A stretch of DNA of 64,000 bases from IMG/VR virus record IMGVR_UViG_3300022752_000048, positions 15,377-79,376 of that record; one strand, given 5' to 3'. Made by a program: the position numbers and the translations under genes. The DNA comes from a virus. Positions 30,723-47,063 of the stretch are shown piece after piece. The notes beneath the pieces were generated by a model. It was not told the DNA's origin. It searched no databases and worked only from the letters and a program-made list of their open reading frames with translations. Each line of letters begins with the position of its first letter. The first letter of the stretch is position 1.

Positions 30723-33671
30723 ATGTCGCACTTTAAATTGTTTGATTTTGTTGACCAACATCCCGAAGAAAAACGTCCATGGAATAACCATTGGAAGAAC
30801 AAAAAAATCTGTACAAATATGCACTGCCATTCACACTTCTCATTAGATGGTGGTTCAACCGTTCAGACTATGGTTGAACGAGCTGTGGAATTGGAATACA
30901 CACACTTTACTCTTTCCGAGCACGGCAACGTAAACAGCGCCGTTGCTTTGTATCGAGAGGCTGAAAAGATTAATAAGAAAGAAAAGAAAATTAAGTTGTT
31001 TCATTCTGTCGAAGCTTATATTCGTCACCCTAAAGATGAAAAATCTACCCATATTACTATCGGATTTAAAACACAGGCCGCGTTTCAAAAATATTGTGAG
31101 CTCACCCACACACTTTACGATGAAAAACACATGGAAGTCAAATGGGGTGATGTTAAACCGGTAATGACTACCGAACACTTAGAAGAACTGGCAGCTCATG
31201 GAATTGTCATAGGGACTGGCTGTATTGGTTCATTCTTTAACTATCCTATCTATAAGCACGGTAACGTTAAAGAATCACGCGACCGCCTTGAATGGGTTAT
31301 GGGTCTAGTTGGCAAAGACAACATTTACGATGAATGGATTGTCGATGACCTTAGTAAATACTATGCGCCTGCAAAAGTTGAAGAAGGTAAAATTATTAAA
31401 GAGGCGGCGTTGGAACTTAACGAATGCTCACCACATTTATTGCAATACGGACAAAACACTCCAAACATTGGTAAAGCTGTAAATAATGTTCGCCGCCAGT
31501 ACGTTACTGGCCCACTAAACGTTAAACCTATTGTTTCGCTCGACTCCCATTATGCCCGTAAGAAAGATAAAGTAATTCAAGATTCTAAGAATTATGGTTC
31601 AGACTGGATTATGTCGAATTTTCAACATATGCGCGGTGCAGAAGAATATGCATATGAGGCTAAAAAATACGGTGATCTAGACGATAAATTTATTGAAGAG
31701 CTAATCGATAACACCGAAGACTATGCCGAACAGTTTAATAGTTATGAGTTTGGTCCATCAAAAGAATGGATCATGCCTAATTATGAAGACTCCAACCTAA
31801 AATGGATTGTCGACAAGATTAAATCTGAAAAACGAATTAACTTGGAAAGTAAAGATTACGCTGAGCGCCTCAATTATGAAATTAAAGTGCTTGGCAATAA
31901 TGGCGTATTTGACGGTCTAGCATATCTAAGAACGGTTAGCGAAATTTGCGACGAGGCGGAAAAACGCAATATTTTGGTTAATACACGTGGTTCAGCTGGT
32001 GGTAGCCTTTCGTATTTTGCTGTGGGTGCATCCGTTACTGATCCAATTAAATATGATCTTCAGTTTGAACGTCATATTACTCTTGGCCGTATTAAGTCTG
32101 GATCTTTGCCAGACTGTGATTTGGACTTTGACGTAAAAGACGAAGCCCTAAAAATGATCTACGAAATGTATCCTGACCGAGTTTTGCCCATTTCAGTAAA
32201 CCAAAACCTTAAACCTCGCTCGGCAATTAAAGATGCAGAACGTTTTATTCTCGGATCTGTACGGCAGGAAACGGAAATCCTAACTAAGTCAATGCCAATT
32301 GTTCCACAAGGTAAAGACGAGACTGAATGGTTGTTTGGTTACGAAGATCATGAAACTGGTGAGCACGTCCAAGGCTATTTTGAGACTTCCCCAGAGCTTC
32401 GCACCTATGCAGAAAAGAATCCAGAAATTTGGATGATGGTAGAACAAATGTGTGGTGTTATGCGGCAAAAATCTTCACACCCGTGCGGGCTTATTATTAC
32501 ACCGTCCGATAGCAAGAAATGGCTGCCAGTTTGTCGCGTAGGTGGAAAGAATGGCGCACTTGTTACAGCGTGGTGCCCAAAAGATTTGGAATGGTATCGT
32601 GCAGTAAAGTTTGACGTGCTTGGTGTTAAAAAGATGCAAACAATCAAGAAAACATTCGAGCTGATTAAACAACGCCATGGAATTGATTTAAAATGGGGTG
32701 AGTTTGATCATAATGATCAAGTGTTTGAGAATATTTATCACGCAGGTAAAACCGATGCCACGTTCCAAACAAATACTTCCGGTATTCGTTCGTTGTGTGT
32801 AAGAACTAAACCAAAAAACATTGTTGATATTTCCAACCTAATTGCTTTGTATCGTCCATCTACAATTGACTGGCAGATGCATTTGCAGGCATCTGAAGAG
32901 CGACCAAGCGGATTTCACGGCAACGCTATGGAATTTTATGTGCAATGCTCTGCCGGCAATCAGAAACCGTATTATATTCATCCCTCGCTCGAACCTATTT
33001 TTGGTTCGACGTTCGGAGTACCATTGTTTCAAGAACAGATCCTAAAGCTTGCTCGAGAAGTCGGCGGCTATTCATTTGAAGAAGCAGAAAACCTTCGTCG
33101 CGGTATTGGTAAAAAAGATAAAAAGCTTATTAACGAAATTCTAGATGATATGGAAAAACGAATTATTGCCAAAGACTCTTCCTGGACCAAAAGCCAATTG
33201 CACGAATTGCGGGAAATGGTTATTGCATCTGCACGTTATGGATTCAATTGTGCCCATAGTACATCTTATGGAATTGTTTCTTACGCTACGGCATGGCTTA
33301 AAAATAATTATCCGTTGGAATTCTGGACGGCAGAGTTGAGCGTTGAATATGGCGATGAAGACAAACTCCGGGAATATTCACAATTAATTTCTGATAAACT
33401 ACTTCAGCCATCCGTCCTGCATTCCGACACTACAGACTTTGTCATTGAAGGAGGCAAGATTCGCGTCCCCTTATGTGTTTTAAAGGGAGTTGGAGAAGAA
33501 GCTGCAAAAGCGGTCAAAAAACTCATGCATAATAGTTTAGAGGAGATCGGTTTAACCAAAAAGCCACAAGTGGTCAAAAACCCGAAAGAATCCACTAAAC
33601 GTGCAAAAGTACTTAGTGACCAAAAACCGGATGATAATTTGCTGTCGCTCAGGCAAGGGCAGGAAACCTAA
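30723..33671 (+). CDS. dnaE: DNA polymerase III alpha-like (DnaE), N-terminal fragment: PHP + polymerase + first HhH
   Basis: PHP HCHSHFSLDG/SEHGN/LDSHY; RGSAGGS; PDCDLDF; KFDVLG; ALYRP; YGFNCAHSTSY. Homology stops after LKGVGEEAAKAV, and there is no OB fold. Confidence 0.95.
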   Translation: MSHFKLFDFVDQHPEEKRPWNNHWKNKKICTNMHCHSHFSLDGGSTVQTMVERAVELEYTHFTLSEHGNVNSAVALYREAEKINKKEKKIKLFHSVEAYIRHPKDEKSTHITIGFKTQAAFQKYCELTHTLYDEKHMEVKWGDVKPVMTTEHLEELAAHGIVIGTGCIGSFFNYPIYKHGNVKESRDRLEWVMGLVGKDNIYDEWIVDDLSKYYAPAKVEEGKIIKEAALELNECSPHLLQYGQNTPNIGKAVNNVRRQYVTGPLNVKPIVSLDSHYARKKDKVIQDSKNYGSDWIMSNFQHMRGAEEYAYEAKKYGDLDDKFIEELIDNTEDYAEQFNSYEFGPSKEWIMPNYEDSNLKWIVDKIKSEKRINLESKDYAERLNYEIKVLGNNGVFDGLAYLRTVSEICDEAEKRNILVNTRGSAGGSLSYFAVGASVTDPIKYDLQFERHITLGRIKSGSLPDCDLDFDVKDEALKMIYEMYPDRVLPISVNQNLKPRSAIKDAERFILGSVRQETEILTKSMPIVPQGKDETEWLFGYEDHETGEHVQGYFETSPELRTYAEKNPEIWMMVEQMCGVMRQKSSHPCGLIITPSDSKKWLPVCRVGGKNGALVTAWCPKDLEWYRAVKFDVLGVKKMQTIKKTFELIKQRHGIDLKWGEFDHNDQVFENIYHAGKTDATFQTNTSGIRSLCVRTKPKNIVDISNLIALYRPSTIDWQMHLQASEERPSGFHGNAMEFYVQCSAGNQKPYYIHPSLEPIFGSTFGVPLFQEQILKLAREVGGYSFEEAENLRRGIGKKDKKLINEILDDMEKRIIAKDSSWTKSQLHELREMVIASARYGFNCAHSTSYGIVSYATAWLKNNYPLEFWTAELSVEYGDEDKLREYSQLISDKLLQPSVLHSDTTDFVIEGGKIRVPLCVLKGVGEEAAKAVKKLMHNSLEEIGLTKKPQVVKNPKESTKRAKVLSDQKPDDNLLSLRQGQET

Positions 33672-33763
33672 AACCTACTTTTTATGGTGGCGTGCGAATT
33701 TCCCAAGCTGGAAAACAATCATTAAATATAAAATGCCAACAAGAATAAATAAAAAAACAATAT

Positions 33764-33796
33764 ATCATGGCGGTTTAGGACTGCCGCGATTTTTTT
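33764..33796 (+). terminator. Probable rho-independent terminator after dnaE-N
   Basis: Imperfect stem ATCATGGCGGT-TTAGG-ACTGCCGCGAT followed by a T-run. Confidence 0.55.
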
Positions 33797-33942
33797 GGGT
33801 TATGTTAACTGACACTAAAGGGCAAACAATAACTTATGACGAGGTAAAAAAAGAATCTATTTTTGAAACAAGTTCAAAGATAGATCTTCTAGAATTTTTA
33901 GCAGATAATAAATTCCCATCACAAATATTAGATGTTTTTATG

Positions 33943-34497
33943 TCAAAACTCTAATTTAAAGCCGAATCCTAAGCTTTTATCTTTAAATTCATATCCAGTT
34001 TCTAGCCAAAGCGGGCCGTATAATCGAAACCCAAGATTTAATTCAATGTTTAATTCTTCGGTTGGTTTTGTCGTTAACAATTTATCAATAGATTTTTCAG
34101 CCATTAATCCGGCAGAATATTTAGATAAATTTTGTTTTTGAACTATTTCTGTTTCTTTCTTTACGCTTTCTTTTTCTTTTGTTTCTTTAGAATTCTTGGA
34201 ATCTTTGTCTACAACTTCCGAATTGCTTTCCTCGGTTTTGCTTTCTTCTTTAGTAGTTTCAATAACTTCGCCATTTGGTTTAGTTATTTTTTTAGTAATT
34301 TTTTTCTCTGTTTTTTTAGATTGATATTCTTTTTCAAGGCGTTCGCGCTCTTCTGCAATTACTTTTTCTGTTTTTTCTTTATCTACAACAAGAACTTCTT
34401 TGATTTGAATATCTGGTGCTGGGCGATTACCATAGCCAATGGCATAACCGCCTACTAAACATAATGCTGCCGCAATTATATATTTTTTATCAAGCAT
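33943..34497 (-). CDS. Spanin-position membrane protein (N-terminal TM, charged linker, C-terminal OM beta strands)
   Basis: Overlaps the endolysin stop. Hydrophobic N-terminus YIIAAALCLVGGYAIGYG, K/E-rich middle, amphipathic strands ending LGFGFKLEF. Confidence 0.6.
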   Translation of the reverse strand: MLDKKYIIAAALCLVGGYAIGYGNRPAPDIQIKEVLVVDKEKTEKVIAEERERLEKEYQSKKTEKKITKKITKPNGEVIETTKEESKTEESNSEVVDKDSKNSKETKEKESVKKETEIVQKQNLSKYSAGLMAEKSIDKLLTTKPTEELNIELNLGFRLYGPLWLETGYEFKDKSLGFGFKLEF

Positions 34498-34936
34498 AAG
34501 GATTTTTCTTTTGCAGATCTTTCCAAGTTAAATCTTGGGGATTGTATTCAAAATGAGCCGTCTCTTTAAATTTTTTCCAATTACCAGCCCATCGTAAACC
34601 CTTTGGCTCTAGTATTGGTTTGATTAAAGTCCAAATTTTTTTGTAAAGTTTTTCATCCCAAACAATATCGCCCTTTTTATCTACAAAATGGAAATCGCCG
34701 GCTAGTCTATAATTGTGAGTTGATTGTCCGCCTTTGGCGTTTGTAACAATCTTTCCGGCTTCGGAACGGCCAAGCGCGTAGAGTTTATCTTGATCTTCGG
34801 GAGATCTATAGCCAGAATGGCATTGCATATTTAGCCCATTGGCATATGCAATTTCTAACATTCGATTCATTACTTCTTGCGCGGGTGGGATTAACTCAGC
34901 TACTAGCTTTTTTGTTCTTTGATCCATTTCCAGCAT
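34490..34936 (-). CDS. Endolysin, M15 family L-Ala-D-Glu peptidase
   Basis: SGYRS..Q..LY..GR...VTNAKGGQSTHNYRLAGDF and ETAHFE Zn-peptidase motifs. Confidence 0.9.
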   Translation of the reverse strand: MLEMDQRTKKLVAELIPPAQEVMNRMLEIAYANGLNMQCHSGYRSPEDQDKLYALGRSEAGKIVTNAKGGQSTHNYRLAGDFHFVDKKGDIVWDEKLYKKIWTLIKPILEPKGLRWAGNWKKFKETAHFEYNPQDLTWKDLQKKNPYA

Positions 34937-35138
34937 TTTCAGATTCCTCTTTCTTTTGCATGCGAGGTTCTTTATATGCCTTTTCTACACCATTCACAGC
35001 AGCTAGCGCAATGGCTACTGATGCAATAGAATTTGCAACGTCTACATTATGGGTATAGCCCAAAATGGCTAGTAATGTGATTGTATAAAAAGCAATTGCC
35101 GTACGTCTGCAGCCATTGAATGGTTTTAGCAACATCAT
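34896..35138 (-). CDS. Putative holin
   Basis: 80 aa with two hydrophobic segments and a charged C-tail, directly upstream of and overlapping the endolysin. Confidence 0.6.
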   Translation of the reverse strand: MMLLKPFNGCRRTAIAFYTITLLAILGYTHNVDVANSIASVAIALAAVNGVEKAYKEPRMQKKEESENAGNGSKNKKASS

Positions 35139-36841
35139 TTATACTTCTTTTTTAATAAAGAATGCGCCTTTTTAAGGATCTCTACGCTTCCAAACCCTTG
35201 TTTTTTTACTGGTTTGTCATTTACAGATTGTTGTTCGCCCATTCTTTTAGAATAATCACCAACAATATCAGATTCTGGGATTTCTCCCGCCACAGCACCC
35301 TCTTTCGGCTTGCTTGGAAATGCTGGATTTTTAGCCTGCTCGGCAGATTTGTACATAGACTTGGCAGCTTCTCCGTTGCCAGACCCTTGTTTTTGTTTCA
35401 TCTTTCTTTCAATTTCTGCTTTTGGCATAGCTATAAACCCTTCATTTGCCGAAGGGATTTCTTCCGGTTTTTGAGTTTCTGTCTTTTGCTTTTGAGCAGC
35501 TTCCTGTCTGGCCTTTAGTTCTGCGATTCTAGCAGCATATTCTGCAGCGCCGCCACCAGCGACCATTGAGCTGCCGCCTTTTTTGGGCTTTGTTTTTGCT
35601 CTGAATTCACCAGAACCCGGCGAATAATTTTCTTGTGAAACAATTCCTTGCGCCTCTTTGGTAGCGCCTTCTGTTGCGTCACCAATATCGCGTTCTGTCG
35701 CTCCTTGTGGTCTTAAACCTGAACCGCCTTTGGCTCCTTGTCGAGCTAAAAACCAATCCATGTGCTCGGCCTGAGCCTGTGCACTTGGGCCGTATTTAGA
35801 ACTACGACCCGGCACGCCTCTTGATCCAGGGCCAGTAAGTTGTGTTAAAGAACCGCGTGAATCTGGGGAATAGTTTCTTGAATATAAATTTTGATCTGCG
35901 CTTCCCTGGTATTGGCGTTTTGTTTCAAAACCAGGAACTCGCCTAGTTTCTTCTTGTTCCATAAATTCTTTTGGCATTTCTTCAGAAGCAGGTTTTTGTT
36001 CAGCACGAAATTGCTCTGCAGCCATAGAAACTTTTGGATCATAAAGAGCGCTCTTTGTATCAGGATCTTCGAAATCGGGATCATAATTGGGAGACTGAGG
36101 ATCACCAAGACCAAGAGCAGCCGCGCCAAATTTTTGTTTTGCGCTCAAGATTTGCTCATTAAGCTCTTTCATTCTTTTTAATCTTTGAGGTGCAAGTTTT
36201 GGATCTTGAGCGTTTTTAATTTCTTCTTCGGTTTTTGGCTTTGCAAGTGACCTGAGTTCTTCTTGCAAGGGAGCAATATCTTGCTCAAATTGTCGACGTA
36301 CTTCGGTGTCACGGCCAACTTTCCTTGGTACTGAGACTGTTTCAGTTTTTGGAACTTGAACATCAACAGGTTTGCCTGTGTATTCTTGTTCGGCATGTTT
36401 ATTGTGATATTTCAAAGCAGTTTTGTAGTGCGCTTGAGCTGCTTTTGCATCTCCACTTCGCTCTGCATCTTCGCCCATATCTTGAGCTAATTTAGCTACT
36501 TCTCTGTACCTTTTTTGACGTTTTAGGTCTTTCATTGCATCTGTAAGTGCAGCATCGTCGTTTTCTTCGTCAGCCTTCATCATTGCCGTTTGAGAAGAAG
36601 TTTGTACCATTCCGGGGCTCATCTCCCCTGCTGGACGCGACCCACCCATTGGCATTGCCTGTTTTTGCAGTTCCGTAGCTTTTTCCATTCTGAGTTTGTT
36701 AAATACATCAGAGCGATCTTCTGGAGCAACCTTTGGCATTACTTCATTGACTTTAGCGGGGCCTTTAATTTCTTTCACTGCTTGGTCAACGGACATAGCT
36801 TTGCACATTTTATGCATTTTTTTAAGATGCTGGATGCTCAT
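35135..36841 (-). CDS. Large low-complexity charged protein, probable head/internal virion protein
   Basis: 568 aa, K/E/Q/G-rich, with several (L/M)xK(S/A) motifs; GGAG RBS; late-type promoter upstream. Confidence 0.55.
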   Translation of the reverse strand: MSIQHLKKMHKMCKAMSVDQAVKEIKGPAKVNEVMPKVAPEDRSDVFNKLRMEKATELQKQAMPMGGSRPAGEMSPGMVQTSSQTAMMKADEENDDAALTDAMKDLKRQKRYREVAKLAQDMGEDAERSGDAKAAQAHYKTALKYHNKHAEQEYTGKPVDVQVPKTETVSVPRKVGRDTEVRRQFEQDIAPLQEELRSLAKPKTEEEIKNAQDPKLAPQRLKRMKELNEQILSAKQKFGAAALGLGDPQSPNYDPDFEDPDTKSALYDPKVSMAAEQFRAEQKPASEEMPKEFMEQEETRRVPGFETKRQYQGSADQNLYSRNYSPDSRGSLTQLTGPGSRGVPGRSSKYGPSAQAQAEHMDWFLARQGAKGGSGLRPQGATERDIGDATEGATKEAQGIVSQENYSPGSGEFRAKTKPKKGGSSMVAGGGAAEYAARIAELKARQEAAQKQKTETQKPEEIPSANEGFIAMPKAEIERKMKQKQGSGNGEAAKSMYKSAEQAKNPAFPSKPKEGAVAGEIPESDIVGDYSKRMGEQQSVNDKPVKKQGFGSVEILKKAHSLLKKKYK

Positions 36842-36859
36842 TTTTTTACTCCAAAAACC

Positions 36860-36924
36860 TTGACTTTTATTGAAATTAATGCCATTGTCTTATATTAGCA
36901 AATCGCTAATATAAATTATACACT
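36860..36924. promoter_or_regulatory. Overlapping face-to-face promoters with 10-bp inverted repeat
   Basis: Plus strand TTGACT-17-CATTGT (36860..36888); minus strand AGTGTATAATTT (36913..36924); perfect inverted repeat TTATATTAGC-AAATC-GCTAATATAA (36890..36914). Confidence 0.55.
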
Positions 36925-36935
36925 TGGAGTCGTCT

Positions 36936-37859
36936 ATGGCAATTGATTTAAGTAAGATGACATTTGGCGCTGAGTTAGAACTGGGTGATGTTGATACAAA
37001 AATTGTTTTACCGCCCGGAAATAGATGGTGCGATAAAGACGGATCTATCTGTAATTCCAACGGAACTGCAAACGATCCCAAAAAAATCTTCAATCGATAT
37101 GGCGGCGAAATCCAAATGAAACCGGAAAACACACCGGAAGAATTGCTTCGTGCTACGAAGGAGATTTACGACCTTCTCCCTAAAAAACATTTTAACTTTA
37201 CAACTAATTTACACGTTCATATTCGTATCCCCGGCCTTAAAGACGATTTAGAGGCCCTAAAGAAAATTGTCACGTATCTTCGAAAATATGATGAAGAAAT
37301 CTATGAACTTATAGATCCAAACCCATTTCCAGAGCGTCAGCTAAAGTTTTCAAATCCAGATTTTTATAATGGTGCAGTCTCAAGATGGCGTCGAAGGAAT
37401 AAATCCCATAGATACCGGGTTACAGAAAAAGTTTATAAACTTATGATGAATGCCAAATCTCCACGCGAATTTTACGAGGCACACGCCCCCAAGAATCGTT
37501 TTGGACAACCTATGTGGCATGTTGTTGTTAGGGCTGGTGTTAACCTAAAACAAATATTCGAAGATACGGAAACTATTGAGTTTCGGCATTTCACGATGTC
37601 GCCAGATTTAAACAAAATGCTTTCCGCCTATAAATGGCCAAAGCTTTTGATGGAAGCTATTTTTGTTACTGGTCATACACCAAAACAAATTTTAGAAAAC
37701 AATCCAGATCTGGTATTTCAAAACTTTCATCCGTATGACCACGGGCTAGACAAAATTTTTAGGCAGACTAATGTTTATCATAACAAACGTTCAGAAGTAC
37801 GAGAGAATTACAAGCGTTTAATCGAACAAGGTTTGATAAACGAACAGTCCTTATATTGA
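36936..37859 (+). CDS. Amidoligase (COOH-NH2 ligase, Amidoligase_2-like)
   Basis: TFGAELE, W.DKDGSI, GGEI, LHVHI and TETIEFRHF motifs. Start moved to ATG 36936, which follows a GGAG RBS. Confidence 0.8.
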   Translation: MAIDLSKMTFGAELELGDVDTKIVLPPGNRWCDKDGSICNSNGTANDPKKIFNRYGGEIQMKPENTPEELLRATKEIYDLLPKKHFNFTTNLHVHIRIPGLKDDLEALKKIVTYLRKYDEEIYELIDPNPFPERQLKFSNPDFYNGAVSRWRRRNKSHRYRVTEKVYKLMMNAKSPREFYEAHAPKNRFGQPMWHVVVRAGVNLKQIFEDTETIEFRHFTMSPDLNKMLSAYKWPKLLMEAIFVTGHTPKQILENNPDLVFQNFHPYDHGLDKIFRQTNVYHNKRSEVRENYKRLIEQGLINEQSLY

Positions 37860-37866
37860 GGAATAT

Positions 37867-38319
37867 ATGAAAATTTTATTTATCTGTACTGGCAATAAAT
37901 TCCGCAGTCCAACTGCGGAGCATATTATGAAATGCCTAGCGCCGCATTTAGAAGTTAAATCCGCTGGAACCGCAGAAGGAGCTGATAAAAACTATTTAAT
38001 GGCTAAAAAAATGCGTCGTTGTTTAGTGGAATTAGGTTATCCCGAGCCTAAAATTCGGTCGCAGCATGTTACGGATGATCTTATGAATTGGGCTGATGTA
38101 GTTTTTTATATGGCACCAATTCATGGTAAATATTTGTTTGAAAACCATTACCCGTTTATTAATAAAACCCAAGGTTTATACAGTTGGCTTCCAGAAGAAA
38201 GTTTAAAAAGGATTGAAGACCCCGCCTTTATTAAAAATCACGAAGATGTAATGGAAATTACTAAATTAATTGAAAAAGCTGTAAAATCAATTCTGGCACA
38301 ACAAGCTAAGCGTATTTAA
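37867..38319 (+). CDS. Low-molecular-weight phosphatase (LMW-PTP/ArsC fold)
   Basis: ILFICTGNKFRS P-loop, SAGT, WADVVFYM and IEDP general acid. Confidence 0.9.
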   Translation: MKILFICTGNKFRSPTAEHIMKCLAPHLEVKSAGTAEGADKNYLMAKKMRRCLVELGYPEPKIRSQHVTDDLMNWADVVFYMAPIHGKYLFENHYPFINKTQGLYSWLPEESLKRIEDPAFIKNHEDVMEITKLIEKAVKSILAQQAKRI

Positions 38320-38549
38320 ATTTCAGAATTGCTGATTTTGTTTTTTTGACGAGAGCCTGTTGGGATAGAGGTACCCGGAAGTTTAGGAGCTTCCGGCATT
38401 TTTATTTCTGGAGCTTTAAATGTAGTTTTCTTGGAAATAGAAGATACAGTGCCGTCCAGAATTTTATACATTCTGTCTTGGACAGTTTCGGCAGGGGTGG
38501 ATTTAGCCATTTTCTTGCATAGTTCGACTATTTCTAATAGCTTGTTCAA
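38316..38549 (-). CDS. Small K/P-rich protein, probable virion protein
   Basis: TTG start with GAGG RBS, MAKS motif, and TGGTAAAAT upstream (38600..38608). Confidence 0.5.
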   Translation of the reverse strand: MNKLLEIVELCKKMAKSTPAETVQDRMYKILDGTVSSISKKTTFKAPEIKMPEAPKLPGTSIPTGSRQKNKISNSEI

Positions 38550-39039
38550 GTTCGGCCTCTGTTACAATCCAAGGTGGTACGCAAACCATTTTATGCTCTA
38601 TTTTACCATATTGGATATTGGATAAAAAAGGCTTCATGAGTTCTTGTTCATCTTGGTGGCGATTTTCTTTAATATAACCGATACTATTGATATTTTTATC
38701 AAGTAGTTTAGACATACAAGCCATGCAGGGCTGGATACTCACAATAAATTGATATTTATGAATATTCATTGTTTCTGTCATCTTTTCAATAAGATCTGCC
38801 TCGGCATGACGAACTAAGAATTTTTTGGCAGGATTTTTGTCGATTGCAAGTTCAGCAAGAGCCTTTGAACTTTTTTCAAAAGCAGAAATTATCTTATTAA
38901 CGCCGTAGGCAACAACCGAATTTGTTGAAGGGTCTATGGCAATTGAAACTACCTGAACTAGTGGATCGCTACTTCGTTTTTTAAGAACGTCAAATAGGAT
39001 CTCGGTGCTAACTACAGGATAGGTGCCGTAGACAAACAT
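38503..39039 (-). CDS. dCMP/cytidine deaminase-like protein
   Basis: SSDP.VQV, HAE and PCMAC zinc motifs. Confidence 0.8.
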   Translation of the reverse strand: MFVYGTYPVVSTEILFDVLKKRSSDPLVQVVSIAIDPSTNSVVAYGVNKIISAFEKSSKALAELAIDKNPAKKFLVRHAEADLIEKMTETMNIHKYQFIVSIQPCMACMSKLLDKNINSIGYIKENRHQDEQELMKPFLSNIQYGKIEHKMVCVPPWIVTEAELEQAIRNSRTMQENG

Positions 39040-39650
39040 TCTTTAATTCCTTGCTGTAGCTTTTGCACTACTTGTTCGGGTGAATCTTCAAAATCTACTT
39101 TTACTAGAGTAACAGGGGCGCGGCATAAATCCAAGAAATATCCTACGCACATCTTTGCTCTATCTGTAAATACCTGAACATTATTAAATGTTAAATCAGG
39201 AAGTCGTTCTTCGACAATTCCGGCATTTTTTCTGCGGAGCGAAAGGCGTTCTCTGATTTTTTCTACTGCAAAGTCGTAATGAACTACTACAACACGAATA
39301 TCTTGTTTATGGCGATATTCGTTCACCATTTCAACCCAACGTGAGGTCGACATAACGCCATCGATAATAACTGTATCTGATAGCTCTAGAGCATCGAAAA
39401 AACCAGTTCTAACTAAGGATGGTGTGGTTATAGAATCCGTGCCAGAATTTTTATTACCAACCAAAACACAATTATCATATTGAACAATACTATATTTTTG
39501 CTCAATCGTAGCACCTCTATTTGGCATCCGCTTTTTAATGAATTTACCCATCTTAGAAATTTCTTTGCCGGCCCCCTGGCAAAAAGTGTTTCTAGTGGTA
39601 GTTTTACCTGTTGCGCCTGCGCCCATAAGGAAAATTGCTAGCTTAGTCAT
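39012..39650 (-). CDS. P-loop kinase, type associated with DNA base-modification clusters
   Basis: Walker A GAGATGKTT, LVG...SGTDSI, VIIDG and lid RERLSLRR. Confidence 0.7.
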   Translation of the reverse strand: MTKLAIFLMGAGATGKTTTRNTFCQGAGKEISKMGKFIKKRMPNRGATIEQKYSIVQYDNCVLVGNKNSGTDSITTPSLVRTGFFDALELSDTVIIDGVMSTSRWVEMVNEYRHKQDIRVVVVHYDFAVEKIRERLSLRRKNAGIVEERLPDLTFNNVQVFTDRAKMCVGYFLDLCRAPVTLVKVDFEDSPEQVVQKLQQGIKECLSTAPIL

Positions 39651-40017
39651 GGAAACCCTCTATGTACTCCTGATTAGTTTTATGGCATTTAACGCAAATT
39701 CTATTTCCGTGTGGCGAAAAGAAAACAGTATTACACTTCAAACAATTTCTGTTTTTTGGCTCTGCAGATCCATGTTCCAAAAAGAACTTTTCGTCTGCCT
39801 TCCGCAGTTCTTCCATAAGCTGTTTATGCCTCTGTTTACGTCTATTTGACGTTTTTTCTCTATTCTTTTTAACTTTTTCTGTCAAATCATTCCAGCTCAA
39901 ATTATGATGTTCGACATAATTTTTCATGAAAGATTCATGATTATCTGTAACAGGAACTGGAATGTTAAGAGTTTTGCAAAACACCTTTAGTGTAATTTTG
40001 ATTTCATTAACAATCAT
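39643..40017 (-). CDS. Hypothetical protein with C-terminal Zn ribbon
   Basis: CLKC...RICVKC; coupled to the kinase gene. Confidence 0.65.
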   Translation of the reverse strand: MIVNEIKITLKVFCKTLNIPVPVTDNHESFMKNYVEHHNLSWNDLTEKVKKNREKTSNRRKQRHKQLMEELRKADEKFFLEHGSAEPKNRNCLKCNTVFFSPHGNRICVKCHKTNQEYIEGFHD

Positions 40018-40027
40018 TGTTTTGCCT

Positions 40028-40357
40028 TTACTCTAATTCTGCACCCATATCGACGATCCCCTCCTTTTGAAGGAGCGAAAGGGCAAATACTCTTTTAGAA
40101 TCTGCAAAGTTTTTAGTTTCGTTAAACGCACTTCTAAAAGTTTGTAAAATTTCTTGTGCAGCCTTGAATTCTGGATTAGCTTCCATTTCCTTCTTAGCTT
40201 TAAGTACGTGCGCATTTTGTTCTGCAATAATCTGTTTTAGTTTATCTACATTATAAGTTTTAAGCATTTGCAATTCATCATAAGAATAGTTTTTTACAAA
40301 CGCTTTTTCAATGTCACTCAAATGGCTATATTTATTTGACTTACTCTTCTTTCTCAT
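40028..40357 (-). CDS. Hypothetical helical protein
   Basis: 109 aa, GGAGG RBS, ATGA-coupled to the ADDT gene. Confidence 0.65.
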   Translation of the reverse strand: MRKKSKSNKYSHLSDIEKAFVKNYSYDELQMLKTYNVDKLKQIIAEQNAHVLKAKKEMEANPEFKAAQEILQTFRSAFNETKNFADSKRVFALSLLQKEGIVDMGAELE

Positions 40358-41217
40358 ACGACATCCTCCACAAAAAGTAATTGCTGGTTTTTAATATATG
40401 CAGTTTTTTCTTTTACTGAAAAATGGTGTTGAAGAAATTTATGATCAAATCCGCATTCATCAATTAAATTCCAAAATACGTCATCTGTATAAATTTCTGG
40501 CTTTTTAAGAACTAAAAACTCATTGATATCATGTCCAACTACATAACTCCCCTTATGCAATATTTTAGGTACTTTACACAAACAACTTTCGACTTGACCA
40601 ATTGGCGCATTCCACACTCTAGATAAGTTCCAACCTAGAGCTTCCCATTCTGGAATTATGTCTTTTGTAAATTTTTGGTTAATTCCATATAGGTAGCGAA
40701 GCCCAAACACCGGCCCAGTGTTTTTATTAGGGTCAGCATTCTCGATTCCTAATCCATTAATGCGAAGGCTGTTATATCTCAGTGTTTGATCCATAAGCTC
40801 ACAGGTTTTATAGCAAGCCCAGTCCCCAAAATATGGGATCGTTTTAAACAGTTCTCGTCCGCTATTAAAATCTAGAGGTTTTGTTTTGAGTGTAGTTTCG
40901 ACTTTTGTCCATTTATCAAAAGCTTTTTCAAAATTTTCAATACGACGAACTTGCGGAGTTCTACCCCGTTCCATACCAAAGCGGCTGATTTTTTCAAACA
41001 TTTGTGTAGGACTTTTTCCATCAGAAAGTCCACGCATAAACAAGATCATGCTTTCGATAGAATAATAATAAACGTACATAAAAATTGCGGTTTCCGGATC
41101 AAATTTTTCATGTTTAATAATTGATTTTAGGAGAGGATAAACAGGATCAACGTCTTTGGTATGGATTAAGGCTAGGCTTGCCTTCTCGAAATCGGAAAAA
41201 TTAAATAGATGTTGCAT
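40354..41217 (-). CDS. Amino acid:DNA transferase (ADDT / aGPT-Pplase2 family, HhH-glycosylase fold)
   Basis: DVDPVY, ERGR, YFGDWACYKTCE, GP..GL, VESCLCK and GSYVVGHDINE match the motif series I recall for phage thymidine-hypermodification transferases. Confidence 0.75.
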   Translation of the reverse strand: MQHLFNFSDFEKASLALIHTKDVDPVYPLLKSIIKHEKFDPETAIFMYVYYYSIESMILFMRGLSDGKSPTQMFEKISRFGMERGRTPQVRRIENFEKAFDKWTKVETTLKTKPLDFNSGRELFKTIPYFGDWACYKTCELMDQTLRYNSLRINGLGIENADPNKNTGPVFGLRYLYGINQKFTKDIIPEWEALGWNLSRVWNAPIGQVESCLCKVPKILHKGSYVVGHDINEFLVLKKPEIYTDDVFWNLIDECGFDHKFLQHHFSVKEKTAYIKNQQLLFVEDVV

Positions 41218-42106
41218 ACAAATACTCTTGAACTGCGTCGGCTAGTTCTTTAATATATGTTGGTGCATGGCGTAAACCATTTGCGGACTTTGGTGTCACA
41301 TACATCGAAGCACCTTCTTGAATAAACGCATGTGAATAGTCTTCCATATAAGCCGGCCTCCACCCTGTTTTAGGATCACCGGTAACTTGGATGCCTACCT
41401 TCCCATCGGTTACTTTAGAAATATGTTCAATAATTTTTTCAATTTTATCTTTAATTTCTAGATCTTTTTGTTCTTTTTGATAAATAAAATGAGTACCTAG
41501 ATAATAGGTGTCTGTAGTTGGCCTTGGATATAAATAGGCGTTAATAAAACGGCCTTCTTTAGCATTTAAACAAAACCTTGGATAACGATCAAATACTTCT
41601 CCACTTGGTTTGCATTCTACTGACCAACCCCAACGATAATCCGTTGGTTTGTATTTGTGAAAACCATTTGCATGGATAACAAGTCGATTGGTTGGTGTTT
41701 TGTCTACGCGGCTAGAAAAGAAAAATTCTTGAGTAAATTGTACAAATGCCTGTACATTAACATGCATTGATTGTTTATTTAAAATTTTAATATTTCCGAC
41801 AGTTTCAACAAATTTTAGTTCTTTGGAATTATTATGATGCGGAATGCTTTTCTGTGTATACCCATAAGGAACAGCTTCGGAAAACAAAATAATCGGGCGA
41901 CGATCTGCTTGGCCAAATGATTGCAGCCATAAGTTATAGTTAACTTCGTCTAGCTCCTCACCGGACGGATAAATACACCCAGTGCTGGCTTTCCATGCAC
42001 CGGGTGAATCATTGTCTTCCCACGAAAACATAATTTTTCTATTTGTTAATTCCCAAGCAAGGAGCGAGCCAATTAATCCAAAGCCCTTAATATGTACTGT
42101 AGACAT
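41201..42106 (-). CDS. FAD-dependent oxidoreductase (DAO/glycine-oxidase-like)
   Basis: VHIKGFGLIGSLLAWEL Rossmann motif, A..ASTG, TGWRP and ANGL..AP. Confidence 0.8.
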   Translation of the reverse strand: MSTVHIKGFGLIGSLLAWELTNRKIMFSWEDNDSPGAWKASTGCIYPSGEELDEVNYNLWLQSFGQADRRPIILFSEAVPYGYTQKSIPHHNNSKELKFVETVGNIKILNKQSMHVNVQAFVQFTQEFFFSSRVDKTPTNRLVIHANGFHKYKPTDYRWGWSVECKPSGEVFDRYPRFCLNAKEGRFINAYLYPRPTTDTYYLGTHFIYQKEQKDLEIKDKIEKIIEHISKVTDGKVGIQVTGDPKTGWRPAYMEDYSHAFIQEGASMYVTPKSANGLRHAPTYIKELADAVQEYLYATSI

Positions 42107-42122
42107 TTTTTAATTCCCGATT

Positions 42123-42620
42123 TTAATATGGACCAAAGGCTCCACTTCCGCGCCGGCGTGACGGAATTGCATTCTGGCGCTGTTGTTCTTCCCATTCCTT
42201 CTGTAGCTCCTCCTGTGTTGCTGTGATTACTGGCGACGGTGTGCGTGGGCTTGCTGTCGTCGCCAATGTCCCGTTTCCCACAGGAGTTTGCTGTTTTGGT
42301 GCGGGAGAAGAAAGATTTTGGTTAATACGTTGCAAGACTTCTACCACAGGATTGCTGGAAATTTCTTTAAACAAAGCTGCTAGTTTAGTTGCTTTTTCTT
42401 CTACCTCGGAAACAGCCTTAACAGTTTCTGGATTATTATTTTCCAGCAGCTGTTCTAGCACAGTGTTTAAACTTTTTTGAATATGTCCCCAAAGAAATTC
42501 TCCGCTTGGCAAAGACAAAATACCTTCTTTTAGAACTTCGTTCTCTAGGGCAGATTGAACGTCACTAAGTAATTTAATTTTCTCTTTCTTGTCCATATTA
42601 TCCCTCGTAAATATCGGCAT
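42123..42620 (-). CDS. Hypothetical protein
   Basis: Helical ORF in the operon; the real start is probably the internal Met (MDKKEK) after GAGGG. Confidence 0.6.
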   Translation of the reverse strand: MPIFTRDNMDKKEKIKLLSDVQSALENEVLKEGILSLPSGEFLWGHIQKSLNTVLEQLLENNNPETVKAVSEVEEKATKLAALFKEISSNPVVEVLQRINQNLSSPAPKQQTPVGNGTLATTASPRTPSPVITATQEELQKEWEEQQRQNAIPSRRRGSGAFGPY

Positions 42621-43686
42621 TCATGGCAATGCCCATGTTCTTAGAAGTAAACACTTCTTGTTTGATTTTGGCGTACAGGTTTTCATCCATTTTGACCAAA
42701 TCAACAAACTTGGACATATTGCCTGCCTTAATTCCAAGCTCTTCTGGGCCAAAGTAAATGGTGTTGCCAGTTTCTTTCTTATGGAGTACGCCAAGATTTA
42801 GCGCTAGCTCTACAAGCTCTTCATACTGGTTAGCCAGTTCACCGCTTTCCATGTTTAGCCAGAATTCAGCAGCCTTGCCCTCGACAGTAAGACGAGTCTT
42901 ATTAACTTTGCAGCGAACCTTGGAACCGACCGCAATATTCTTGCCTTGGCCGTCTTTGGATTCGGAAACCAGCTTGTCCTTCATGCCAGTTGCCTTTTCC
43001 AAGAAAATAATAGTGGAGCACAAGTGTTTTAGCCGTTGACCACCAGTAAGCACCCATGGATAGTATTTAGCCATGCGAGTATCAAGGTTGGCCATAGCGT
43101 GGTTAGTAAGGACTACTAGCACTTCGCACTCGTTAGCAATACGATTTAGTACGTTTAGCGCTGGATTGATGCTCTTAGAAATGCCACCGTAACCATTTGC
43201 AGCACCACTAACATCGCCTTCTTCCATCGCACCTTGTTCACCAAGCGCAGTAAGGGCCTTAACGGAATCGAGTACAATTGCGCAGCAGTCCTTGTTCTTC
43301 TTGATTTCCTCTTCAGCCTTAGCTAGGGGCTTAATAGCGCCTTCAAATGTATTTGACTGGATAACTACCAGACGGTCGAGATCAACACCCAAGCTGGCTG
43401 CCCGTTCAGGGTTAAACGCATATTCTGTGTCAATAAAGATGCCGTACTTGGTTGGGTTCATTCGTTGCTCTTGTGCCAGCAACTTTAAAGCCATAAGGCT
43501 TTTACCAGAACCAGGCGATCCCCATAGCATAACCAATTCACCTACTGGAATACCGCCACCAACAGCCCAGTCAAAAGAAACTGAACCGGTGCTCCTGACT
43601 TGTTTTTGTTTATTAGAAAATTCTTTGGCTACGGCAACTCGTTCCATTTTTAGCATTGACGACAAATAGCTTGGTAGTTTTGACAT
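42598..43686 (-). CDS. recA: RecA/UvsX-like recombinase
   Basis: STGS..FD.A.GGGIP.G, WGSPGSGKS, FIDTEYA, LGVDLDRL, IVLDSV, TGGQRLKH and KVNKTR. Confidence 0.95.
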   Translation of the reverse strand: MSKLPSYLSSMLKMERVAVAKEFSNKQKQVRSTGSVSFDWAVGGGIPVGELVMLWGSPGSGKSLMALKLLAQEQRMNPTKYGIFIDTEYAFNPERAASLGVDLDRLVVIQSNTFEGAIKPLAKAEEEIKKNKDCCAIVLDSVKALTALGEQGAMEEGDVSGAANGYGGISKSINPALNVLNRIANECEVLVVLTNHAMANLDTRMAKYYPWVLTGGQRLKHLCSTIIFLEKATGMKDKLVSESKDGQGKNIAVGSKVRCKVNKTRLTVEGKAAEFWLNMESGELANQYEELVELALNLGVLHKKETGNTIYFGPEELGIKAGNMSKFVDLVKMDENLYAKIKQEVFTSKNMGIAMNADIYEG

Positions 43687-43694
43687 TTATTACC

Positions 43695-44165
43695 TCATGC
43701 ACGGATGTGAATATTGTTGAAATTAGTACGGCCATAGATATTTTTCTTAACATCATCTATTGAAATTGATAGCACCGAACGAACAGATGATAAATAGGAA
43801 TAAACGCTATCCCAATAGGCTTCGTCTTCTTGGGCTATTTGATATTCTGGTTGAATACAAATAAACGCCTGTTTGTCTTTTTCGGTAGGTTTTTGGATAT
43901 TTTTCTCCGCCGCCCACTCTGGAAATTTTTCTATTCGAAGAACTGATTCTACTCGCTCCTTTTCAATCTTTGCTTTTGATAACGAATATTGCGCTTTTGT
44001 CATTAATTCGGAAATAGCTAGCAATCCTTCGCGCATGGATTGTAGAAACACCGGTGCATCGTGTTCAGTTACACTTACTGACTGCTTGCTCTTGGCAATA
44101 AAGGGGGCGAGCTGGTTGGCAATCATGTTCATTTGATCACGTTTTGAAATAATTTCTGTACCCAT
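43695..44165 (-). CDS. UvsY-like recombination mediator (putative)
   Basis: Helical 156-aa protein between SSB and RecA, with a KPTEKDKQAFI...PEYQ pattern. Confidence 0.5.
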   Translation of the reverse strand: MGTEIISKRDQMNMIANQLAPFIAKSKQSVSVTEHDAPVFLQSMREGLLAISELMTKAQYSLSKAKIEKERVESVLRIEKFPEWAAEKNIQKPTEKDKQAFICIQPEYQIAQEDEAYWDSVYSYLSSVRSVLSISIDDVKKNIYGRTNFNNIHIRA

Positions 44166-44182
44166 GTTTCCGCCTTAAATAT

Positions 44183-44210
44183 AAAAAAAACCGACCAAAT
44201 ACATGGTCGG
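44183..44210 (-). terminator. Rho-independent terminator after SSB gene
   Basis: Minus strand CCGACCA-TGTATT-TGGTCGG followed by T8. Confidence 0.85.
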
Positions 44211-44234
44211 CCAAAAACAATTTAATGAGTACTA

Positions 44235-45149
44235 TTAAAACGGATTCCAATTTTCTTCATCTGCACCGCCAAAGTCAACAGAAGCAGAACTGGCAGCCGA
44301 CTTTTTATCTTCCGCAGAACCTTCGCCTTGGTTTCTAATTAAGCGAGAAGGAAGTTCGGTACCGCCAGATGCTACGAATGCTGCCATTTCATCTTCACTC
44401 CAAAGACGAGATGCAAACATCTGCACCAAGTCGATCATCTTTTCAGGATCTTTAAGACGATCTTTAACTGAATTAGGGAGTTGTTGTTCAAACAGCATTT
44501 CTGTTTTTTGACGTCCAACCATTTTTGATTCAACGCAAAGATCCGCAGAGTAGCGAGTATCCAATTTTTCGCCAGTTTTATTTAGTATCATCCAACCAGT
44601 GGGCTCAGATGGGTTGTAAACCTGGGCATTGTAATCTTTGAACTTATGCACTACACCACTGATTTTTTTGCTGGCATCACCAAACATTGCTTTAATCAAA
44701 GATGTTTTTGCGTCAAGAACAGAGATCTTATCGTCACCGCGAAGAACGACTAGGACGGAAAACCTACGCTTCTGTTCAAAAGCCTTAGAAAGAGTTGAAT
44801 GCTCAAGATATTTTTCATGCATTTTATGTGCGGGCGCTTTTGCTCCAAGTTCTTCTAGCTTAGCAGCTTCATCACGATGCTTCCAATGAGCATCACAAAT
44901 AGAACAGGTCTTTCCAACAGAACGAGGACAAGGAATACGCATGTATTCGCCATTTAGCGTATATTCATGAAAATGGTTTTCTGTGTATGGACGAGGCTTA
45001 CCAACGTGTTGATTAACGACTACGCGTAATGTAAGTGGCCATGTAGTGTTTTTTGCACCACCAACGTAATTGATCTTTTCACGTTGCTCTTTTTGTTTAC
45101 CAACAGAGAAATCTTCGTTTTCGAGTAGAGAATAATCAAAATTTTCCAT
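44235..45149 (-). CDS. gp32-like single-stranded DNA-binding protein
   Basis: HFH...CP....TCSIC zinc site, KTGEKLDTRY, acidic tail ending EENWNPF. Confidence 0.8.
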   Translation of the reverse strand: MENFDYSLLENEDFSVGKQKEQREKINYVGGAKNTTWPLTLRVVVNQHVGKPRPYTENHFHEYTLNGEYMRIPCPRSVGKTCSICDAHWKHRDEAAKLEELGAKAPAHKMHEKYLEHSTLSKAFEQKRRFSVLVVLRGDDKISVLDAKTSLIKAMFGDASKKISGVVHKFKDYNAQVYNPSEPTGWMILNKTGEKLDTRYSADLCVESKMVGRQKTEMLFEQQLPNSVKDRLKDPEKMIDLVQMFASRLWSEDEMAAFVASGGTELPSRLIRNQGEGSAEDKKSAASSASVDFGGADEENWNPF

Positions 45150-45162
45150 TTTACGGCTCCTT

Positions 45163-45789
45163 TTAACGGTATTGGAATTTAGCTAGCGACGGATTCATAG
45201 AATTATTAGCAGCGGCGGTTACTCTTGATAACTCGATACCTTCTTCAATGGCCTTGAGTACAGTTACAACTTTTTCTTCTTGGGATTTCTTTCCACCTCC
45301 TTTGGGCACGGCAACTACGGTTCTTGACAAACGACTATTAAGCGGCGAACGACGATAGGTGTAAAAAACATTTGATTGTAATTCACCGGTTTTAAAAATT
45401 TGCGAAACGCTGATATTATCTTGCTGCAATGTTAGGTCGTCGACAATTCGTACAAAATCACGAATACTTTCAATCTTTTTTAACACTCGACTAGTATCAG
45501 GAGTCCTACGAATAGCGGTTGTGCCTGAAAACAATTTAAGGCAGTTAGCAAACAAAACATTTGCCTCTGTTGCAGAAATTTCAAAGGGCATTTCTCTGCT
45601 AAGAGATGCGGCATAACCTTTAGCCTTCATTTCTTCGGCTACTTGAATTGCATAGTCAGACACATATCCAAGCTGGACTGGCGCATATTTTTCAATACCT
45701 TGGAGGATCACTTGTGCTTCGTCTTCTTTAAGGTCTGATAAATCGATAATTACTGGAATTGAATATGAACGGTCGTACATAACGGTCAT
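45163..45789 (-). CDS. Hypothetical protein
   Basis: 208-aa ORF with AGGAG RBS, coupled in the replication operon. Confidence 0.65.
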   Translation of the reverse strand: MTVMYDRSYSIPVIIDLSDLKEDEAQVILQGIEKYAPVQLGYVSDYAIQVAEEMKAKGYAASLSREMPFEISATEANVLFANCLKLFSGTTAIRRTPDTSRVLKKIESIRDFVRIVDDLTLQQDNISVSQIFKTGELQSNVFYTYRRSPLNSRLSRTVVAVPKGGGKKSQEEKVVTVLKAIEEGIELSRVTAAANNSMNPSLAKFQYR

Positions 45790-46241
45790 TTTTTTCTCCT
45801 AGACGGTTTTTTGATTTTTCTTCTAGCTTTATTTTCAACAATACTTTTTTGTTTGTGACAAGGAATGCACTTAACGGTTAGTTTTGATAATATATTTTGT
45901 TTCATTTCATCGGTTATGTTTTCCTCATCAAAAAAATCTACGCCAACAAACATCCTGTCAACATATGTGTTCCAGTCTTTCCAACCAGATATGTCAATAA
46001 CAGGATCTTCATGGTCGACCTGAATTTCTTTATAATCAAAAATTTTGTTGCAGGCACAACATTTGTATTTAACACGTCTAGCTTTACTTTCTGTACCATC
46101 TTTTTTTGAAGCTTTGTATGGAATTTTGGCATTTTCTAAAACAAGTTTTTTGATTGGACTAATAGAAAATAACCGGCGAATCGCTGAAATAAGCGATGCT
46201 CTTAACACCCATTTGCGTTTCTTTTTAGATTTCTTTGCCAT
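45786..46241 (-). CDS. HNH endonuclease-like protein
   Basis: YKCCAC, IQVDHEDPV and CIPCH..KS..E. Confidence 0.8.
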   Translation of the reverse strand: MAKKSKKKRKWVLRASLISAIRRLFSISPIKKLVLENAKIPYKASKKDGTESKARRVKYKCCACNKIFDYKEIQVDHEDPVIDISGWKDWNTYVDRMFVGVDFFDEENITDEMKQNILSKLTVKCIPCHKQKSIVENKARRKIKKPSRRKK

Positions 46242-46259
46242 CTATCGATGGTAATAAAT

Positions 46260-47063
46260 TTAAATTGAAAAGTCGATGATATCTTGCAAATTAAAATAAG
46301 GCTTTTTAGTAAAGCTACTCACACCGACTTTTCCGACAAAAAGGCATAGCTTGTGGCGGTATGATCCAAGCTTTTTATTTATCTTAGGATCGTATTCAAA
46401 TACTTTTTTCTTTATTCCACTCACGGGATCATCAACTAATCTTTCTTTAGGCCACATGCGCACGCGAACATCATCACTTCCATCAAAGATGGAAACTTCT
46501 ATAAACTCTTTTCCGTCATATTTTTTAGTAGCATATCCATTAAAATAACCAAAAAAAGCCTTACGCCACATTCCTGTTTTTACGGAAAAATCTGATATTG
46601 TACCCTTATAATTTTTAGCAATCGCCACGCGATCTTCTATTTTGTTTCCGTTTTGATCAATTGTGAATTGGCGGGCAAAAGGAAATACTTCTGTAAACTC
46701 TTCTTTGGTAGTCTTAAACCCGAGCTGCTGTAATGCGGATTGGTAAACATTGCAGAAGCTAATAGAAAAAATAGGATTAAAATCAGCTAGCCATAATTGC
46801 CGATCAAAATCGGACGTAATTTTCTCCATTGGAATACGCTGTTCTTTGATTTTTGGAAACCCGGCAGTAGATTTGCAAGCTTTTTTAAGCTGCTCGATGG
46901 CCACAAACCGTTGTTCTACTGTTAACGGATCTGGAAAACAGTCATCAAATGCACCGCTCATGATCATAGTTATGATTGGCGAAACCATAATTTTAATTTC
47001 GCCAGTTTCGTAATTTTGTTTTACGTCTTTGACTTTGACCAAAAAATCTTCCCACTTACTCAA
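46260..47063 (-). CDS. dnaE: DNA polymerase III alpha-like (DnaE), C-terminal fragment: second HhH + OB fold
   Basis: KWEDF...ITMIMSGAFD resembles the DnaE LIxxGAFD motif. KKYDGKEFIEVSIFDGSDDVRVRMW and LCLFVGKV resemble the DnaE OB fold. Likely TTG start at 47063 after a GAGG RBS, overlapping the sbcC stop. Confidence 0.75.
   Translation of the reverse strand: MSKWEDFLVKVKDVKQNYETGEIKIMVSPIITMIMSGAFDDCFPDPLTVEQRFVAIEQLKKACKSTAGFPKIKEQRIPMEKITSDFDRQLWLADFNPIFSISFCNVYQSALQQLGFKTTKEEFTEVFPFARQFTIDQNGNKIEDRVAIAKNYKGTISDFSVKTGMWRKAFFGYFNGYATKKYDGKEFIEVSIFDGSDDVRVRMWPKERLVDDPVSGIKKKVFEYDPKINKKLGSYRHKLCLFVGKVGVSSFTKKPYFNLQDIIDFSI

Follow-up and report, generated by a model that had tools for sequence, protein, structure and literature searches.

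Two dnaE-derived genes on opposite strands

The DNA analysed here is a stretch of 64,000 nucleotides (nt), hereafter the window, which is part of a 79,376-base viral record in IMG/VR (IMGVR_UViG_3300022752_000048, positions 15,377 to 79,376; completeness rating about 48%). It carries tail and baseplate genes, a lysis cassette, sbcCD-like genes and genes for a UvsX-like recombinase, GroEL, DnaB and ribonucleotide reductase. The subject of this work is its dnaE, which encodes a C-family DNA polymerase of the Pol III alpha type and is present as two genes, one for the catalytic N-terminal part and one for the C-terminal part. Bacteria replicate their DNA chiefly with Pol III alpha, which has been studied as a single long polypeptide. 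A preliminary description, made from the letters of the sequence, had placed the two genes far apart on opposite strands, and we indeed found 12.6 kb between them. The two genes, and a hairpin behind the first, are as follows.

30723..33671, plus strand: dnaE N-fragment, 982 amino acids (aa); recognised by Pfam, PDB alignment and clade alignment
33768-33786, plus strand: terminator-like hairpin with a T run to 33796, 97 nt past the N-fragment stop; consensus match only
46260..47078, minus strand: dnaE C-fragment, 272 aa from ATG 47078; recognised by family profile, hhalign and AlphaFold2 (AF2)

In the N-fragment, Pfam identified the PHP domain (PF02811, residues 33-202, E 9e-23), the palm (DNA_pol3_alpha, PF07733, residues 374-634, E 5e-38) and the finger domain (PF17657, residues 638-816, E 7e-35). 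Beyond these, only positions 4-42 of the 90 in the HHH_6 model were matched (residues 893-932), which confirmed the earlier view that the chain breaks inside the double helix-hairpin-helix domain, (HhH)2, after its first hairpin (HhH-1). A complete (HhH)2 is not contained in the 982-aa chain and is obtained only across both chains. Alignment with PDB chains reached residues 386-907 of the 1220 of T. aquaticus Pol III alpha and 314-849 of the 1160 of E. coli alpha, and no further; the match to PHROG 405 was confined to positions 40-888 of 1190.

Nine PHP metal-ligand positions (H34, H36, D42, H67, E97, H110, C167, D274 and H276) do not vary in the clade alignment, and neither do the palm residues D464, D466 and D631, which we take from prior knowledge of DnaE to be the catalytic Asp triad. 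The invariance of the PHP ligands suggests that the protein may act as a self-proofreading exonuclease. PHP self-proofreading is known from M. tuberculosis DnaE1.

After ...LKGVGEEAAKAV, the N-fragment ends in about 50 Lys-rich residues (933-982) without any Cys. The tail of about 50 aa that had been noted earlier is therefore present; the terminator said to follow it is the hairpin listed above, from a scan that overall did not exceed chance (22 found, 17.8 expected from shuffles).

Identity of the C-fragment

The frame of the C-fragment is open over 46260..47108 on the minus strand. ATG 47078 is the start chosen by gene callers for all close homologues, and an alternative TTG at 47063 lies 9 nt after a GAGG. 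As the ATG, the GAGG and the TTG are all kept in three relatives, the start may be either one. The open reading frame (ORF) at 46260..47063 reported earlier thus exists, with its 5' end as one of two candidate starts. With the sbcC-like gene ending in a stop codon at 47056-47058, the overlap of the two genes is 8 nt from the TTG and 23 nt from the ATG.

An HMM search of this ORF had been expected to return DnaE domains. Taken alone, the C-fragment matched nothing in Pfam at E<=1, in PHROGs at E<=10, in the PDB at E<=10 (phmmer) or among 50,697 phage records (tblastn); it was the profile of its family, built from an alignment of 54 members, that matched the C-termini of fused DnaEs. An exhaustive profile search gathered the family as stand-alone proteins of about 250 aa, in 52 representative clusters at 50% identity, with no long protein among them. 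All members are metagenomic, with no match in the records of cultured phages, and unnamed, one being misnamed GroES. The OB-fold model PF01336, which we take to mark the DnaE C-terminus, was reached by 8 of the 54 members (best E 5.6e-6).

As unsplit references we used P0079 (1131 aa) and the DnaE ORFs of genomes G011 (locus L018, 1197 aa) and G006 (locus L012, 1205 aa). The C-family profile matched residues 934-1192 of the 1197-aa protein (E 3.7e-37) and residues 942-1200 of the 1205-aa protein (E 8e-36), and other fused phage DnaEs more weakly. Against several bacterial-type DnaEs it matched in two colinear stretches, profile positions 26-66 (second HhH) and 165-253 (OB fold), while no truncated DnaE was matched and a search of the PDB gave one chance match only. 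Meanwhile, hhalign aligned the family with residues 934-1115 of P0079 at a probability of 94.9% (E 4.6e-8). In P0079 itself, Pfam places HHH_6 positions 4-83 at residues 876-952 and the OB fold at 1067-1130.

AF2 modelled the C-fragment at a mean confidence (pLDDT) of 43 from a 5-sequence alignment and of 92.6 from the 54-sequence alignment. The latter model has a helical region (residues 9-130) followed by a five-stranded OB fold (134-272), and this fold, together with the PF01336 matches, agrees with the OB pattern described before. The C-fragment accordingly comprises the connector helix, the second HhH (HhH-2), a helical linker region and a C-terminal OB fold, with which it ends; the model shows no tau-binding domain behind it, and inspection by eye between HhH-2 and the OB fold called no clamp-binding motif. 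The sole structure match that spans both parts is M. tuberculosis DnaE1 (7pu7_A residues 885-1099, Z 7.2, 177 aligned, root-mean-square deviation 5.5). The structure matches of the predicted model are consistent with DnaE but not discriminating, and it is the sequence homology to the unsplit relatives that decisively identifies the C-fragment as the missing DnaE C-terminus.

The two genes are complementary

Pairwise BLAST placed N-fragment residues 25-940 on residues 11-927 of the fused G011 DnaE, and C-fragment residues 8-109 on residues 934-1035 (E 2e-9). Given this coverage of the 1197-aa protein, the two ORFs are complementary to within about six residues, which are unaccounted for at the junction, and nothing is duplicated. 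This upholds the proposal that they are the parts of one DnaE. Identity of the N-fragment to unsplit phage DnaEs is 35-38% (38% to P0079, residues 27-931 against 6-914). The break falls in the loop after the second helix of HhH-1, before the connector helix of (HhH)2. The C-part occurs just once in the window, and no remnant of it was found, the DNA past the end of the N gene (33671) included. Hence, the phage DnaE gene is truly split into two genes.

Conservation and selection

Three further IMG/VR records from other samples carry the N gene on the plus strand and the C gene on the minus strand, 13-15 kb apart, with proteins 84-95% identical to those of the window; one of these records is 169 kb long and rated 100% complete. 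Because the arrangement recurs in independent records, it is not a misassembly, which had been named as one way in which the split could prove false. The C gene was present in all nine of the records with a truncated DnaE (window, G001, G002, G003, G004, G005, G009, G012 and G014), so the same split point in related phages, anticipated earlier, was found. No free-standing C copy was seen in any record with a fused DnaE.

The C genes of the window and G001 (loci L002 and L020) differ at 140 nucleotides, 120 of them at third codon positions, and their products are 95% identical; the proportions of nonsynonymous (pN) and synonymous (pS) differences are 0.03 and 0.74. The ratio of nonsynonymous to synonymous substitution (dN/dS) by the Nei-Gojobori method, approximate since synonymous sites are near saturation, was about 0.01-0.05 for the C gene and 0.02-0.03 for the N core, indicating strong purifying selection on both. 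The pairwise distances of the N- and C-fragments co-vary (Mantel r 0.98, p 2e-4, 8 genomes).

The N tail is less constrained, with a dN/dS of about 0.3. In the same comparison of the window with G001, pS was 0.65-0.74, near saturation although the proteins are 95% identical, and 0.25 in the N tail; the low value in the tail hints at a mosaic history or at recombination within the gene. Many truncated DnaEs (P0058-P0100; window 33519-33668) share a layout after HhH-1, namely a semi-conserved L..L...SLE.LGL, a Lys-rich linker and an acidic-hydrophobic tip. Such tips read ...LFDEYD, ...IFDDFD or ...DAVE, and that of the window ...DDNLLSL...; they resemble SSB-type interaction tails. It is a speculation that the linker and tip together could serve as a tether.

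In four complete relatives, no Pfam match was obtained for PolA, PolB, a beta-clamp or a DnaQ-type exonuclease, and PF00136 (PolB) matched neither in these four nor in the record of the window. DnaE is thus the only detectable polymerase.

No device for rejoining the products

The earlier observation that intein halves are missing held under a direct search. The intein model PF14890 matched neither the N- nor the C-fragment even at E<=1. The N tail is too short for an N-terminal intein half (IntN), and the mere seven residues before the homologous part of the C-fragment leave no room for a C-terminal half (IntC). No Rfam intron family was found within 29000-51000, and what lies 5' of the C gene is coding sequence of sbcC.

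Inteins detected by PF14890 do occur in several members of this DnaE clade, and a relative, G005 (IMGVR_UViG_3300045919_000425), served as a positive control: there the model detected both halves of an intein, so split-intein halves are detectable in the clade when present. The HhH break is free of intein halves in G005 as well.

The intein-like halves of G005 lie elsewhere, in its N-fragment gene (L010 2944-7223; also covered by L106), where the conserved ...KYGFNRSHS motif marks the point of interruption. The last 108 or so residues of the first piece are IntN-like, matching Intein_splicing positions 9-81. A 168-aa ORF starts with 38 IntC-like residues (positions 122-155, ...HN|C) and continues with the rest of the fingers and HhH-1. 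A 341-aa ORF without a Pfam match lies in another frame between the two halves. The arrangement resembles a split intein accompanied by a free-standing ORF, and DnaE would then be a three-gene enzyme in G005; a group I intron was considered for the interrupted gene and rejected. Likewise, P0065 (1085 aa) was rejected as a fused DnaE, being a truncated DnaE with an intein.

History of the split

The search with the N-fragment returned DnaEs 930-1000 aa long (more when they carry inteins) in about 40 clusters, all without an OB fold, plus unsplit members. In a FastTree phylogeny of 64 DnaE cores, the 41 truncated forms make up nearly one clade, nested among fused phage DnaEs and with the fused pair P0079/L011 as its sister. 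Another fused pair, G006/G011 (L012 2956-6570; L018 2971-6561), falls inside the split clade with a support of 80, and its C-terminal parts are the closest match to the free-standing C-family (E ~1e-36). Given this nesting, a minimum of two changes is needed, which could be two fissions or a fission with a later re-fusion.

In G009, G012 and G014, the two dnaE genes are adjacent on one strand in different frames. The junctions of such split-adjacent pairs are as follows.

L016, 6353-6366: 14-nt overlap
L075, 5877-5931: 53-nt gap
L042, about 5900-6039: overlap

The genes around the C-fragment of the window, in the order of their transcription, and the GroEL gene on the far side are listed below.

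49013..49990, minus strand: sbcD-like metallophosphoesterase gene, first in the operon; Pfam Metallophos, syntenic in relatives
47056..49053, minus strand: sbcC-like ATPase gene; PHROG 77, Pfam AAA_23 and SMC_N
45786..46241, minus strand: HNH-like nuclease gene directly downstream of the C-fragment; PHROG 1985, E 2.6e-12, no Pfam match
44235..45149, minus strand: SSB-like gene, last in the operon; PHROG 1607, E 7e-5, and synteny
44212-44189: strong terminator-like hairpin ending the sbcD-sbcC-dnaE_C-HNH-orf-SSB operon; terminator scan
42598..43686, minus strand: UvsX/RecA-like recombinase gene; PHROG 97, E 4e-47, and synteny; conserved replication-recombination module
52704-54314, plus strand: GroEL-like chaperonin gene; PHROG 5725, E 1e-71

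Fused relatives have the gene order sbcD-sbcC-dnaE, and split-adjacent ones sbcC-...-dnaE_N-dnaE_C-HNH-like-...-SSB-like. In the window and in G004 the order is sbcD-sbcC-dnaE_C-HNH-like-orf-SSB-like-orf-UvsX-like. The ancestral order is taken to be sbcD-sbcC-dnaE-HNH-...-SSB-...-UvsX. By this synteny, the C-fragment still occupies the place of the ancestral dnaE, and the gene that moved is the catalytic N gene. The split arose within one clade of uncultured phages, large ones of about 155-190 kb, where a fused gene became two adjacent genes in different frames, and in a later step in the sub-clade of the window the N gene was relocated, leaving the C gene directly behind sbcC. The overlap of start and stop codons, described earlier as translational coupling to sbcC within a recombination operon, is real. 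It arose on removal of the N gene, however, and gives no evidence of a new functional link to recombination.

A probable two-chain polymerase and its rivals

Judged from the sequences, the best and most economical reading is a non-covalent two-chain polymerase. In this model, which we consider probable, the separately made N and C chains would reassemble non-covalently, restoring the duplex-binding (HhH)2 and placing the OB fold. HhH-1 of the large chain would pack on two elements of the small one, its connector helix and HhH-2, so that the five-helix (HhH)2 is rebuilt by fragment complementation, with two helices from the large chain and three from the small. The rebuilt domain would bind duplex DNA, and the OB fold would meet the single-stranded template in the way it does when Pol III alpha is one chain. 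Together the two chains would then form the phage replicase, proofreading by way of its own PHP domain.

Several points weigh against this model. The C-fragment is confidently predicted by AF2 to fold alone and so need not be an obligate partner, and structure searches with its OB fold (Foldseek, VIA-align) gave generic matches, at Z 7-9, to many SSB, RPA and tRNA-synthetase folds. The co-variation of distances is largely driven by shared ancestry and chiefly tells that the two genes have been inherited together, with no swapping. E. coli alpha cut short at its C-terminus, as in the 1-917 construct used for crystallisation, retains polymerase activity. Some bacterial DnaE3 proteins naturally do without the OB and C-terminal domains (PMC3919608), which means that a core without the C-piece could work.

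The last of these points also speaks for an alternative that we regard as doubtful, in which the core is a self-sufficient polymerase and the OB-fold protein an independent accessory of the sbcCD/SSB/UvsX module that binds single-stranded DNA. Such a role would fit the independent folding predicted for the C-fragment, the position of its gene for co-transcription with the sbcD, sbcC, HNH-like and SSB-like genes, and the N gene being now in a separate transcription unit. That operon position is ancestral for the whole dnaE, however, and therefore uninformative on the C-piece specifically. Moreover, the C-piece retains the half of (HhH)2 whose only known context is packing on HhH-1, it co-occurs strictly with a truncated DnaE (9/9 records), and it diverges in step with the N-piece. 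A further reading, which we find rather improbable, treats (HhH)2-OB as an exchangeable, separately dosed subunit that the core might bind reversibly, perhaps via the Lys-rich linker and acidic-hydrophobic tip; the phage could then use its only polymerase either for processive synthesis at the fork or, with sbcCD, SSB and UvsX, for synthesis primed by recombination or repair. The preliminary description had proposed a separately regulated subunit that could couple the replicase to recombination-dependent replication, which would mean that the C-fragment was recruited to the recombination operon as a separately dosed part. The overlap with the sbcC stop codon and the UvsX-like recombinase and SSB-like genes in the same module can be cited in favour, but this proposal is not supported by comparison with relatives and is improbable: dnaE already stands directly after sbcD-sbcC where it is fused, and the split-adjacent order sbcC-dnaE_N-dnaE_C-HNH-...-SSB indicates that the N gene moved and the C gene did not.

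Covalent joining of the two products, by a split intein or by RNA trans-splicing, would be in keeping with the frequency of inteins in the DnaE clade and with the split intein elsewhere in the N-fragment gene of G005. It is nevertheless highly improbable, since the model that finds both G005 halves finds nothing at E<=1 in either protein, the N tail is a Cys-free and poorly conserved stretch of about 50 aa, C-fragment homology begins at residue 8, and around the C gene there is sbcC coding sequence and no intron family. That the split is an artefact, whether a misassembly, a frameshifted pseudogene or a dead remnant, might be suspected of a metagenomic viral contig of such a low completeness rating. 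The chance of this is practically negligible in view of the same architecture in independent records from other samples, complete ones included, of the roughly 40 truncated-DnaE and 52 C-family clusters, and of the strong purifying selection on both genes. The two-chain polymerase thus remains our preferred interpretation.

Comparison with known systems

Single-chain DnaEs (T. aquaticus, 2HPI/3E0D; E. coli, 2HNH/5FKU; M. tuberculosis DnaE1, 5LEW/7PU7) and the unsplit phage DnaEs share with the window the domain order PHP, palm, fingers, (HhH)2 and OB, and the catalytic and PHP ligand positions are likewise conserved. The window DnaE differs from them in that two distant genes on opposite strands encode it, with the cut falling between HhH-1 and the connector helix; it also appears to lack the tau-binding C-terminal domain, and no phage beta-clamp or epsilon was detected.

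To our knowledge, the only well-known natural DnaE split is the intein-repaired one. As cited in PMC3919608, the cyanobacterial dnaE-n and dnaE-c products are rejoined by the DnaE split intein through protein trans-splicing. By that account, the cyanobacterial enzyme is likewise a C-family replicative polymerase from two distant genes, but intein halves flank its break, whereas the window split has none and lies elsewhere. A further split is that of the intein-less Pol III alpha that Iyer et al. 2021 predicted in group 2.2 jumbo phages (PMC7824862). This enzyme is a minimal catalytic module divided between its NTP-binding and its Mg/template-binding subdomains, has neither PHP nor the rest of the Pol III domains, and occurs together with a family B polymerase. 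It and the window DnaE are both predicted two-protein C-family polymerases without inteins, encoded by distant genes of large phages. Unlike the group 2.2 enzyme, the window DnaE is full-size with PHP and fingers, is cut in (HhH)2, and no PolB was found with it. We found no description of this particular DnaE split in the literature.

A third kind of division is seen in the fractured genes of environmental phages, where a split intein has a free-standing endonuclease ORF between its halves. The N-fragment gene of G005 has that architecture, while the HhH split of the window lacks both the intein halves and the ORF between them.

A clade of large phages thus appears to run its only detectable polymerase from two polypeptides cut within a small DNA-binding domain. 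Fused, split-adjacent and split-scattered stages are all preserved in living relatives, which makes the clade a worked example of the fission and then dispersal of an essential gene and a natural experiment on the contribution of the (HhH)2-OB module to a C-family polymerase. The break is a natural point at which such a polymerase appears to tolerate cutting, of possible interest to protein engineers, and the 52 representative clusters of the C-fragment family can now be annotated.

Observations on neighbouring genes

By tblastn, the HNH-like gene was found downstream of the C-fragment in L075, L016, L042, L104 and L105, with 31-38% identity; all split genomes examined have it there. Behind the fused dnaE of G011/G006 no such gene was seen, and a 343-aa P-loop/DnaB_C-like ORF takes its place. 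The relocated N gene adjoins a baseplate gene in the window and G005, or the GroEL block in G004. This block, orf50126-orf52021-GroEL, is conserved beside the N gene in G004.

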